A stretch of 64,000 bases of DNA, taken from assembly GCF_044647545.1 (NCBI RefSeq), contig NZ_CP172818.1; one strand, given 5' to 3'. Shown piece after piece: positions 40,172 to 48,596 of the stretch. Made by a program: the position numbers and the translations under genes. How positions within the stretch are numbered: the first letter of the stretch is position 1; the number at the start of each line of letters is the position of its first letter. Under the pieces are notes generated by a model, which was not told the origin of the DNA, did not search any database, and saw only the letters and a list, made by a program, of their open reading frames with translations. The stretch comes from Escherichia coli (lineage in GTDB: Bacteria; Pseudomonadota; Gammaproteobacteria; Enterobacterales; Enterobacteriaceae).

Positions 40172-42136
40172 TCAGGCGGCGGTGTTCGCCATACGTTGTT
40201 CGCGGTTTATCGCCTGCAAGGCGGAGACATCAACAATCAGTGCCACGCTGCCGTCGCCAAGAATGGTCGCAGCAGAAATGCCGGGGACTTTGCGATAGTT
40301 ACTTTCCAGGTTTTTAACCACAACCTGGTGTTGACCAATTAATTGATCCACCAGCAAGGCGTAGCGGCGACCGCCACTTTGTAAGATCACCACAATTCCC
40401 TGGGTAGCTTCGGTTTTCGCGCCCGCGACGTTGAACACTTTCCACAGTTCGACGATGGGCAGATATTCACCCCGCACTTCCAGCACCCGCTCGCCGCCTG
40501 CCAGTGGATGCAGATCGGCTTCACGGGGTTGCAGTGATTCCATGACAGCATTCAGCGGCAGAATGAAAACTTCATCCGCAACGCGTACGGACATGCCGTC
40601 GAGGATGGCCAGCGTCAGCGGCAGTAAAATGCGGATCGTCGTGCCAGTACCCTGCTTCGACTGGATTTCGACATGACCGCCCATCTCCTGGATATTACGT
40701 TTAACGACGTCCATGCCGACGCCGCGCCCGGAGACGTCGGTGACCTGCTCTGCCGTGGAGAAGCCAGGTGCAAATATCAGCATCGCGACTTCGTCGTCGC
40801 TCATGTTTTCGCTTACAGTCAAACCTTGCGAGGCCGCTTTTGCCAGAATTCGCTCACGGTTTAGCCCTGCACCATCGTCGGTCACTTCAATGCAAATGTT
40901 GCCGCCCTGATGTTCGGCAGAAAGAATTAAATTTCCGACGCTGTTTTTACCTGCGGCGAGCCGTTTTTCTGGCAGTTCAATACCGTGATCGAGGCTATTG
41001 CGTACCAGGTGGGTCAGCGGGTCGATAATGCGTTCTATCAGGCTCTTGTCGAGTTCAGTAGAACTGCCCACCAGCGTCAGTTCTACCTGCTTGCCGAGTT
41101 TTCCCGCCAGATCACGCACCAGCCGGGGATAGCGACTAAAGACATATTCCATCGGCATCATACGAATCGACATCACTGATTCTTGCAAATCACGAGCGTT
41201 ACGTTGTAACTGCCCCATGCTGGTAATCAAATCACCATGATTAACCGGGTCCAGTTCACTGGAGCGCTGGGCAAGCATGGACTGGGTGATGACCAGCTCG
41301 CCGACGAGGTTAATTAATTGATCAACCTTTTCTACCGCTACACGGATGCTGGTGGATTCACTGCTGCGCGTCGTTTTTTCCCGCTCCACGCGACCGGTTG
41401 GCGCTTGTTCGGCTGCCAGTTTAAGCACTGGTGGGGTGGATATTTTGGGCGAGACTTCTACTGTTTCAAAGGTAATCTGATCGGCTTCAATCACAAAACA
41501 GAGTACCGCTGTGATGTCATCTTCGGCGATGTCGCCCGTTAATATTGCCGAGAGAGAATCCGTCCCTTTCACCACGTCAGTTAACGTTGTCAGATGCCCC
41601 AGCTCTTCTTCCAGCAGGTCGACTTCGCCGGCCTTCAGGCGCGAAAGGATAATTCGTCGCGGCAACTGACTGCGACTCTGCTCATCTTGCGGTTCACTTT
41701 TGGCAACCACACTTAATCGGGTCACTGCGGATGGCGTTTCGCCTTTCGCTTCTAATGCCAGTTGACGCAAGGCCTGGCAGATATAATCGAAGCTGGCAGC
41801 ATCCGGCTCTTGCGACTGTTTATAAGCGTCGAGCTGTTCTTGCATGATGTCCTTCGTTTCCAAAAACAGATTGATAATGTCGGTGTTGAGTTGCATCTCA
41901 CCTCGTCTGGCTTCATCGAGCAGGTTTTCCATCAGATGCGTGGTTTCCTGCAAAACGCTGAAGCCAAAGGTTCCTGCCCCTCCTTTGATCGAGTGGGCAG
42001 CCCGAAAGATGGCATTCAATTGTTCGGCATCTGGCGCTTCCGGCTGCAAAACCAGCAGATGCTGCTCCATATCAGCCAACAGTTCGTCCGCTTCATCAAA
42101 AAATGTCTGATAAAAATCGCTTATATCCATGCTCAC
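40172..42136 (-). CDS. cheA: Chemotaxis histidine kinase, 654 aa, GTG start
   Basis: N-terminus (M)[27 protein letters not shown] with phospho-His site [10 protein letters not shown]; begins at an in-frame GTG. Confidence 0.94.
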
Positions 42137-42140
42137 GCTG

Positions 42141-43067
42141 TCACCTCGGTTCGGCTGATGGCATTGTGGGAACACTGACCTGTGGTGCAACCTCAGGTTT
42201 TTCCAGGGCGCTTACTGGCTCATTCTGGCTTTCGGCGTTTTCATGCAAAATGGCCTGTTCGGCTTGTTTGTTCAGTACCAGCAGGCTGATGCGACGGTTG
42301 ACGGCATCATCAGGTCCGCGATCGCTTAAGCGCATCGTTGCCGCCATGCCGACGACACGTAACACTTTGCCGCCATTCAACCCGCCAACCATCAGTTCGC
42401 GGCGGGATGCATTGGCACGATCGGCAGAAAGCTCCCAGTTGCTGTAACCTTTCTCACCGCTGGCGTAGGGAAAATCATCGGTATGACCCGAGAGGCTAAT
42501 TCGGTTGGGAATACCGTTCAGTACGGGCGCGATGGCGCGCAGAATGTCGCGCATATAGGGTTCGACGTCGGCACTGCCAGTTCTAAACATCGGGCGATTC
42601 TGGCTATCGATGATCTGAATACGTAGACCTTCCTGGACCAGATCGATTTTGAGATGTGGACGTAACGCCCGCAGTTTCGGATCGGATTCAATCAACTGGT
42701 CGAGATCGCCACGCAATTTCCGCAATCGACTTTGCTCCATGCGTTTTTTCAGCTCTTCGATGTTCGGCTGCTTATTCACTTCCCCCTGACTTTGGGTGTA
42801 ATCATCACCCCCACCGGGAATTGGGCTTTCACTATTAGAAATGCGATCGCCGCCCGTAACCGCAGTCGCCAGTGGAGTCCGGAAGTACTCCGCAATCTGA
42901 ATCAGCTCTTTTGGGCTGGAGATGGAGATTAGCCACATCACCAGAAAAAAGGCCATCATCGCGGTCATAAAGTCGGCATAAGCAATCTTCCACGATCCAT
43001 GTGCTGCCCCGTGGCTTTTGGCTTTGCGTCGTTTGACGACAATAATCGGATGCGCTTGATTCTTCAT
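42141..43067 (-). CDS. motB: Flagellar stator protein MotB (OmpA-like peptidoglycan-binding domain), 308 aa
   Basis: [46 protein letters not shown]... Confidence 0.96.
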
Positions 43068-46390: not shown

Positions 46391-46396
46391 CCGCTC

Positions 46397-47821
46397 CTAC
46401 GCAAGCTTAGGAAAGGTAGCAACTTTATCGCGCTGCTGGCTTTCCGCGCTTCGCGGAACTATCTGCTTTAGGTCGCTAATGAAGCACTCCTGCCAGTGGT
46501 TAATATCGTTTTTCACGATAACGTCCAGCATTTCTGCATGACGGGAAATACGTTCCGCCAGCGACATAGTCAATGCACGATCCAGCGCAGCTGCAACTTC
46601 GTCACGATCATAGGGATTAACAATTAACGCCGACGTTAACTCGTTTGCCGCTCCCGCAAATTGCGAAAGAACAAGAACGCCCGGGTTGGCTGGGTCCTGA
46701 GCGGCAACATACTCTTTTGCTACCAGGTTCATCCCGTCACGCAGTGGCGTCACTAAGCCCACGTCAGAGTAGCGGAATATTTTCATCAGTAATTTACGGT
46801 CAAAATGCTGATTCAAATAATAAAGCGGCGTCCAGCCTAATTGTCCGTATTTACCATTAATTCGTCCAGCTTCATTTTCGAGCTGATGACGAATATCCTG
46901 ATAAGCTTGCACATCACCACGCGACGTTGGTGCAATCTGGGTATAACGAATTTTACCATGATGCTGCGGATATTTTTCCAGCAACGCTTCATAGGCGAGA
47001 AAACGCTCTGGCAAACCTTTGGAATAATCCAGCCGTTCGACAGAAAAGATATTTTGTACGTTTTTCAATTCCGCTTTAAGTTGCGCTAGTTTTGGCGGCA
47101 GTGGCCCGGCAGCCTGTTTGGCTATTTCTTTCGGCTCAATGCCAATCGGGTAAACTTCCGTTCGAAATGCTTTGCCGCAGGCTGTATGGTTTTTTGCGCT
47201 ACGTGTCGTGACGCGGGTCAGGTTAGAAAGGCAATCCAGGAACGCCAGACGATCGTTTTCTGTCTGGAAACCCAGCAAATCATAATCACAAAGCTGTTCA
47301 AGCAAGGTGTCATATGTCGGCAGCGCGTTGAAGATTTCCGGTGTCGGGAAAGGAATATGCAAAAAGAAACCAATGCGATTATTCACGCCCCGTTTGCGTA
47401 ATTCATGCGCAAAGGGCAACAGGTGATAATCGTGGATCCAGATAATGTCATCGTCTTGCAACAGCGGCAGTAATTTATCTGCCAGCAACGCATTTACGCG
47501 TAGATAGCCATCCCAGGCAGGACGCTGAAATTGCACCAGATCGAGCCGATAATGAAAAGCGGGCCAGAGAACGGCATTGGAGAATTTGTTGTAGTATTCG
47601 TCAAGGTCCTGTTCGCTGAGGTTAAAAGAGGCCCACGTAATGTTACCCTTTTTCACCTTTTTTAGCGGCTGATCCTCATTCCCTGTTTCACCGCTCCAGC
47701 CAAACCACAGTCCGCCTGCGGCTTTCAGTGCCCCCAGTATGCCAACGGCAAGGCCACCGGCACTGGCGGCGTGCTCGTCTGGTGGTGCAATCCGGTTAGA
47801 TACTACGACTAAACGACTCAT
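46397..47821 (-). CDS. otsA: Trehalose-6-phosphate synthase, 474 aa
   Basis: [44 protein letters not shown]...; start at the internal ATG. Confidence 0.95.
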
Positions 47822-48596
47822 AGTCATCACTCCTGTTATTTTCTCTTTTTTGTTGTAATGCGATGGTTATCATTTCAAGCCAGCTCCAGACATCCGGCAC
47901 GCCCGCCAGTCGCCATGATGCCTGAGTTGCACATGTGCCAATTTTTACTGACATTCCGCCCAGCCGGTTAACGACTGCGAAGCCAGATTCATCGGTCAGA
48001 TCATCGCCCAGAAATACGGGCGTTCGCCCGATAAAGGGAGCTTCCTGCATAAAAGCAGCAATCGCCTCACCTTTACTGGTACCTTTCGGTTTGATCTCGA
48101 CAACACACTTTCCCTGCTGTAACGCCATTTGTGGCCAGATCTGAGTAATACGTTGCGCTAATGTCATTAATGCGTCTTCATGCTGCGGAGCCTGGCGATA
48201 ATGCAGCGCAAAGGCCATCCCTTTCGTCTCCAGCTCCGCACCCGGAAACTGGGCGATAGCCGTGTGCAGTTGCACGCTAATATCACGCGCAATCGCATCC
48301 GGCAGATGAACGATATGCGTTTTACCATTGATGTCACGGCGCTCCGCCCCATGCACGCCCGCTAATGGGAAGCGATAAGGTTTTGCCAGTGCATCAAGCT
48401 CCACCATTGAGCGCCCTGATATCAATGCCAATGCACCATCACTTGCGGTTGCCAGTAGCTGAAGTCCTTGCAGAATATTGTCAGGCACGACGACCTGATC
48501 GGGATGCGGTTTGATTTCTGCCAGCGTTCCATCGAGATCAAAAAACCAGGCATATTTCGCGGATAGTTCAGGGGTTTCGGTTAACGGTTCTGTCAC
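47796..48596 (-). CDS. otsB: Trehalose-6-phosphate phosphatase, 266 aa, GTG start
   Basis: (M)[31 protein letters not shown] with the HAD motif DLDGTL; 3' end overlaps otsA by 26 nt. Confidence 0.9.

Follow-up and report, generated by a model that had tools for sequence, protein, structure and literature searches.

Gene content of the locus

The DNA considered here, positions 40172-48596, belongs to a 64-kb segment of Escherichia coli chromosome (the window, by which we mean this whole stretch) that extends from edd to sdiA/tcyN and shares 97-98% identity with K-12. It corresponds to four well-known units of the ordinary E. coli chromosome, the motA-motB-cheA-cheW (mocha) operon, flhDC, uspC and otsBA, and our subject is where translation of these genes begins, in particular at the GTG codons of cheA, motA and otsB, and how adjacent genes overlap. 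The gene order tar-cheW-cheA-motB-motA-flhC-flhD / uspC / otsA-otsB-araH is found in the annotations of both NZ_CP033850 (FDAARGOS_497) and K-12 MG1655. A match to the stretch is present in 5,424 of 5,426 complete E. coli genomes. Alignment with NZ_CP033850 and related genomes gives 100% identity outside a single gap of 173 bp, and ST648-like genomes are 100% identical over most of the region. Every K-12 MG1655 coding sequence was projected onto the window, and its start codon, stop, frame intactness and upstream in-frame starts were recorded; all projected coding sequences are intact with the exception of nudB. The genes whose starts are discussed are the following.

40172-42136, minus strand: cheA, long form CheA(L), 654 amino acids; GTG start at 42136; K-12 projection intact at 98.3% identity, with an identical start in the annotation of the NCBI Prokaryotic Genome Annotation Pipeline (PGAP)
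40172-41845, minus strand: cheA, short form CheA(S); start at codon 98, an internal ATG in the same frame (41845), preceded by a GAAGGA Shine-Dalgarno-like site of its own
42141-43067, minus strand: motB; ATG start at 43067, TGA stop at 42143-42141
43064-43951, minus strand: motA; GTG start at 43951, the sole in-frame start after the upstream stop
44078-44656, minus strand: flhC; ATG start, with 2 nt between flhD and flhC
44659-45009, minus strand: flhD; ATG start; the mechanical open reading frame (ORF) is 3 codons longer, to GTG 45018
46397-47821, minus strand: otsA; ATG start at 47821; the mechanical ORF is 3 codons longer, to GTG 47830
47796-48596, minus strand: otsB; GTG start at 48596; the mechanical ORF is 19 codons longer, to ATG 48653

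Start codons of cheA, motA and otsB

The GTG starts that a sequence-only reading of the window had given to cheA, motA and otsB coincide with the K-12 projection, at 42136, 43951 and 48596. Each of the three has, 4-10 nt upstream, a Shine-Dalgarno site that is better placed than those of the in-frame alternatives. For cheA this is a GAGGUGA site (-7.2 kcal/mol) with a 4-nt spacer, located at what is the CheA(L) N-terminus in K-12. The otsB GTG has an AAGGAGG site 8 nt upstream (-11.7 kcal/mol). Among the three candidate starts of otsA, only ATG 47821 stands at a workable distance (8 nt) from a CAGGAG Shine-Dalgarno site.

The frames of cheA and otsB do remain open upstream of these codons, that of cheA through GTG 42175 (+13 codons) and TTG 42190 (+18 codons), and the upstream otsB codon is an ATG, a stronger start than GTG. 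The longer ORFs might thus be taken for the real genes, with cheA starting at TTG 42190 or GTG 42175 and otsB at ATG 48653, and both proteins extended at the N-terminus. We consider this very improbable. The Shine-Dalgarno sites of the two upstream cheA candidates are badly spaced, and a cheA beginning at either would overlap motB by 35-50 nt. The upstream otsB ATG lacks a Shine-Dalgarno site (+1.5 kcal/mol). A sigma-S-type -10 motif, CTATACT (48663-48657, minus strand), lies 3 nt upstream of this in-frame ATG, and an otsBA transcript from such a promoter would begin at or after it. We found no open paper on the otsBA promoter or on the otsB/otsA overlap.

Solved structures and existing annotation also argue for the short forms. 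Residue 2 of the E. coli CheA chain 6s1k_A aligns with residue 20 of the long cheA ORF, and residue 2 of Salmonella OtsB (6upb) with residue 21 of the long otsB ORF; both proteins therefore begin at the GTG position. On a genome that is 100% identical outside the 173-bp insert, PGAP places the starts of cheA, motA, otsA, otsB and flhD exactly where curated K-12 has them. This contradicts the suggestion, made from the letters alone, that these starts are often misplaced by automated callers. Nor are the over-extended ORFs cited in its support a caller's error: no gene caller was involved, and the list was compiled mechanically by opening each frame at the first ATG, GTG or TTG that follows a stop; its ORFs simply extend upstream to the preceding stop codon. 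Longest-ORF tracks of this kind make cheA, otsB, otsA, flhD, tar, araG and araH too long and are no substitute for gene calls.

Shine-Dalgarno placement, the N-termini of solved proteins, independent annotation and the sequence upstream of otsB are thus four lines that agree in favouring the short annotated forms. On this basis the true starts are very probably the curated K-12 ones (probability roughly 0.92), with cheA, motA and otsB predicted to initiate at GTG behind properly spaced Shine-Dalgarno sites. Several points weigh against this reading. Initiation mapping or N-terminal peptide data for these genes were not found in the literature searched, and cheA, motA, otsB and nudB go unmentioned in the Ribo-RET preprint and in the TRAINSPOTTER main text. 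The regions upstream of otsB and cheA, and likewise of otsA and flhD, are identical in K-12, in the comparison genome H1 and in the window, and within-species variation therefore cannot discriminate between candidate starts. The agreement with the Protein Data Bank is only partly independent, because depositors' protein sequences follow annotation. Finally, the translational coupling considered below for motA/motB, otsB/otsA and the other pairs is deduced from geometry.

The internal start of cheA, already noted in the sequence-only reading, is in place as well. The in-frame ATG at 41845 lies 97 codons 3' of the GTG, has GAAGGA 4 nt upstream as its own ribosome-binding site, and would as a second start give CheA(S). 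The K-12 RefSeq annotation lists both CheA products. Two polypeptides from cheA are known for K-12 (PMC2716512, PMC11005335), and the two-start gene is reported in PMC2716512, which itself cites Smith & Parkinson 1980.

Gene overlaps and possible translational coupling

Nine of the 41 neighbouring same-strand gene pairs in the window overlap, mostly by the 4-nt ATGA:

47796-47821, minus strand: otsB/otsA, 26 nt
43064-43067, minus strand: motA/motB, 4 nt (ATGA), the motA stop lying over the motB ATG
31790-31797: flhB/flhA, 8 nt
21052-21055: cmoA/cmoB, 4 nt (ATGA)
11150-11153: znuC/znuB, 4 nt (ATGA)
19005-19008: yecD/yecE, 4 nt (ATGA)
60899-60902: uvrY/uvrC, 4 nt (GTGA)
flhA/flhE, 1 nt
yecU/yecF, 14 nt

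The 26-nt otsB/otsA overlap and the six overlaps of 4-8 nt had been described beforehand, and all of them agree exactly with the length or range then given; flhA/flhE and yecU/yecF are additional. The earlier remark that these junctions are consistent with translational coupling also holds, since the classic stop/start geometry is present: the genes of a pair lie on the same strand and in the same operon, and the upstream stop overlaps or abuts the downstream start. Although cheA does not overlap motB, the motB TGA stop (42143-42141) is part of the cheA Shine-Dalgarno sequence and precedes the GTG of cheA by 4 nt; cheA therefore also appears positioned for termination-reinitiation. In the usual operon geometry, a terminating ribosome would re-initiate at the next start or unfold it, which would tie the yields of the subunits together. 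We infer from this arrangement that coupling may actually operate at each junction.

It is also conceivable, though unlikely, that the overlaps are incidental to compact operons and play no regulatory role, the downstream genes being translated independently from their own Shine-Dalgarno sites. Overlaps of 4 nt are the commonest overlap class in bacteria, and for most of the downstream genes a separate site can be recognised (motB -5.9, cmoB -5.8 and znuB -5.7 kcal/mol). However, the sites of yecE (-2.9 kcal/mol) and flhA (-3.0 kcal/mol) are weak and that of uvrC is poorly spaced, so these genes probably depend on the upstream ribosome. Coupling has moreover been measured for neighbouring che pairs in the adjacent operon (PMC2716512). 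The pairs covered by that paper are cheR/B, cheB/Y, cheY/Z and cheA/W, not the overlap pairs listed here.

Frequency of GTG starts and overlaps

The 62 coding sequences of the window start with ATG in 51 cases, GTG in 10 and TTG in one. K-12 uses about 14% GTG and 3% TTG starts, and an overlap share such as that seen here is normal for enterobacterial operons, in which the 4-nt ATGA is ubiquitous. In one recent N-terminomics set of E. coli, 9% of the annotated starts that were mapped are near-cognate codons (PMC13245402). GTG starts and overlaps thus occur at ordinary frequency, not above chance, and the description of these features as routine is borne out. They are, furthermore, already known as the long-established layout of the motility, chemotaxis and trehalose operons of E. 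coli, and the finding is in this respect of little import, since the textbooks already describe these features for the mocha and otsBA operons. Seven further non-ATG starts in the window had not been listed by the sequence-only reading: the GTG codons of mepM (9371), ruvA (13712), argS (27540), flhB (32938), tyrP (55888) and uvrC (60902), and the TTG of uvrY (61555).

The nudB start region

The fourth gene to which a GTG start had been given, as probable, is nudB, the single K-12 coding sequence that does not project intact.

15916-16362, minus strand: nudB region; aspS stop at 16362-16360, ATG at 16358, first in-frame start GTG at 16329

The ORF of the window does begin at a GTG (16329), as proposed, but the N-terminal match does not start at this codon: the sequence resembles NudB from 10 codons earlier, directly after the aspS stop. 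GTG 16329 has no Shine-Dalgarno site (+0.3 kcal/mol), and its 137-amino-acid product would be without YKRPVSIL, residues that lie within the crystallised protein chain 2o1c. The ATG at 16358 opens an out-of-frame mini-ORF of 9 codons (MAISVPFRS*), whose TAG at 16331-16329 overlaps GTG 16329.

The K-12-type start, a GTG followed by AAGGATAAAGTG (MKDKV) upstream of YKRPVSIL, is absent from the window. In K-12, the nudB GTG and the next four codons lie within a 125-bp segment (L004 18619-18743) that the window is missing. This segment is a dispersed repeat, found at a median of 3 places per genome; about 3,750 genomes out of 5,426 have it at 95% identity or above. It may resemble an ERIC element. 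Genomes free of the repeat, the closest relatives of the window included, have TGATATGGCTTATAAG instead, in which a single base separates the aspS stop from an ATG (MAYKRP...). In such genomes (H1, L002 14072-14079), PGAP sets an ATA start three codons upstream of this ATG, with an 8-nt overlap with aspS. The nudB start accordingly differs between E. coli lineages, because the 125-bp dispersed repeat supplies the K-12 GTG.

The window differs from its repeat-free relatives by a private 1-bp deletion: one T of TGATATGGCTTATAAG is gone at 16352, which puts the relatives' ATG (16358) out of frame. None of the 5,426 complete E. coli genomes has this allele. Were it real, NudB would be made as an N-terminally truncated protein of 137 amino acids from a GTG without a Shine-Dalgarno site, and GTG 16329 would be reached via the mini-ORF running from ATG 16358 to the TAG, coupled to the aspS stop.

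A 173-bp insertion in the flhDC regulatory region

The alignment gap mentioned above corresponds to an insertion private to the window.

45307-45479, no strand assigned: 173-bp insertion, directly after TTAA 45303-45306, in the flhDC regulatory region

The flhD 5' untranslated region is taken to be 198 nt long, in agreement with where the annotated asflhD RNA of K-12 ends, which puts the TTAA at -96 to -99 relative to the flhD transcription start. The TTAA upstream of flhD is a published hot spot at which insertion sequence (IS) elements raise motility (PMC5100188).

The composition of the insertion is highly skewed (78 A, 55 C, 35 T and 5 G on the plus strand, or 3% G), and together with a tract of 44 adenines described below (A44) it forms the lowest-complexity sequence of the window. 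Searches in near and distant modes did not find it in the 5,426 complete E. coli genomes, nor was there a match in the plasmid collection, an exact 26-mer in genome contigs or an exact 30-mer in metagenome and viral contigs. It has no target duplication, terminal repeats or structure, and no meaningful ORF or promoter- or terminator-like site. At its right end, 41 bp reproduce the last 50 bp of IS1 in a form broken by many indels; the local alignment scores 52, and shuffled sequences reach 34 at most. Of the features of IS1, namely a length of about 768 bp, insA and insB, inverted repeats of about 23 bp and an 8-9-bp duplication, this one degenerate end is all that is present.

Other origins were tried and rejected. 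The whole insertion is a strict subsequence of the target duplication plus IS1, as a deletion-riddled IS1 would be, but so are essentially all shuffles of it. For the left 132 bp, a collinear k-mer chain to IS1 is no better than shuffles or a reverse-complement control. Similarity to IS5 does not exceed chance.

Further private junction variants and their origin

Comparison with three genomes revealed four window-private indel anomalies besides the 173-bp insertion, five in total. In addition to the nudB deletion, there is a private 2-bp deletion at 22025, seen against those three genomes only, directly after the cmoB stop at a place where K-12 has about 133 extra bases. The terminator hairpin between argS and flhE (29277-29328) is scrambled by several small indels, and its best match in any genome reaches 93.8%; the nearby flhE stop is TGA in the window and TAA in H1. 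The remaining anomaly is the flhB-cheZ spacer (33052-33150, about 100 bp), which consists of a garbled K-12-type repeat, then A44 (33107-33150), and ends at the right junction of the dgt island, a 2.4-kb element carried by H1-type genomes. As read from its parts, the spacer is chimeric, with A44 as the bridge between two alleles, and no E. coli genome covers at least 80% of this region. The four private variants for which searches were made, the cmoB deletion not being among them, occur in 0 of 5,426 complete E. coli genomes. All five anomalies are located at sites where E. coli strains differ by the presence or absence of an element.

Clean genes combined with degenerate sequence confined to polymorphic junctions point to a problem in sequence production, and the five junction anomalies, the 173-bp insertion included, are most probably artefacts of the sequence. 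They may stem from a consensus built over mixed alleles or from another step of reconstruction. The opposite view is that the insertion, the nudB deletion and the other junction variants are genuine in a natural strain, in which flhDC regulation and the NudB N-terminus really differ. The window has its own scattered single-nucleotide polymorphisms, like a distinct strain; the insertion sits exactly at the TTAA hot spot for motility-raising insertions (PMC5100188); and the K-12-projected genes other than nudB are sound. Against this stand the absence of the searched variants from the complete genomes, and of the insertion from the plasmid, genome, metagenome and viral contig collections, the near lack of G and the low complexity of the insertion and A44, and the missing target duplication, terminal repeats and structure. 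The right end of the insertion is, moreover, an indel-riddled IS1 end joined at the very junction of the MG1655 element IS1H, the flhB-cheZ spacer joins two alleles through A44, and every one of the anomalies falls at a strain-variable indel junction. We therefore regard a natural origin of these variants as improbable, and it is a shade less probable still that the G-poor insertion and the 1-bp nudB deletion are both real in a natural isolate. If they were, a non-IS, non-coding filler would come between the flhDC promoter and the repressor sites upstream of it, an effect that IS1 and IS5 also have, and motility would change. The several low-complexity junction sequences of the window, which were not seen in other genomes, call for suspicion before any biological meaning is read into the flhDC regulatory region.

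Other features of the window

The accessory content of the window is mosaic (33052/33151; 29276/29314; 58066 onward). Missing from it are the dgt island of H1-type genomes, the yecV-yecT segment present in K-12, and a DUF262 / type I restriction island that H1 has beside yecA; after yecA, the window has the K-12-like arrangement tRNA-pgsA-uvrC-uvrY. Rfam matches at gathering score (25919-26226, 39551-39628, 58014-58313) comprise the MicL small RNA within cutC, the C0465 RNA between tar and cheW, and three tRNAs (Leu, Cys, Gly cluster).

Comparison with known systems

The closest known counterpart of the 173-bp insertion is IS1H of MG1655 (NC_000913.3 1978503-1979270), inserted a few bases away, with which it shares an identical right junction (...GCAGCATCACC|CATAAATG). 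IS1H measures 768 bp, whereas the insertion has 173 bp, is 3% G and contains neither insA nor insB. Unlike IS1H, it also lacks the second inverted repeat and the 8-9-bp target duplication, and its left 132 bp show no similarity to IS1 or IS5 beyond chance.

Compared with K-12-type nudB (GTG, MKDKVYKRP...), the window encodes the same NudB body from YKRPVSIL onward, two substitutions apart. It differs at the start, as in K-12 the 125-bp repeat supplies the GTG and the first five codons.

The mocha operon of K-12 MG1655 (b1890-b1887) and that of the window have the same gene order, the same GTG starts of motA and cheA, the same motA/motB ATGA, the same spacing of 4 nt from the motB stop to the GTG of cheA, and the CheA(S) ATG at codon 98. 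Their nucleotide identity is 97-99%, with scattered substitutions only and no structural difference. For otsBA (b1897-b1896), the otsB GTG start and the 26-nt otsB/otsA overlap are shared and the 90 nt upstream, including the AAGGAGG Shine-Dalgarno site, are identical; the two otsB genes share 96.8% nucleotide identity, and nothing structural differs between them.

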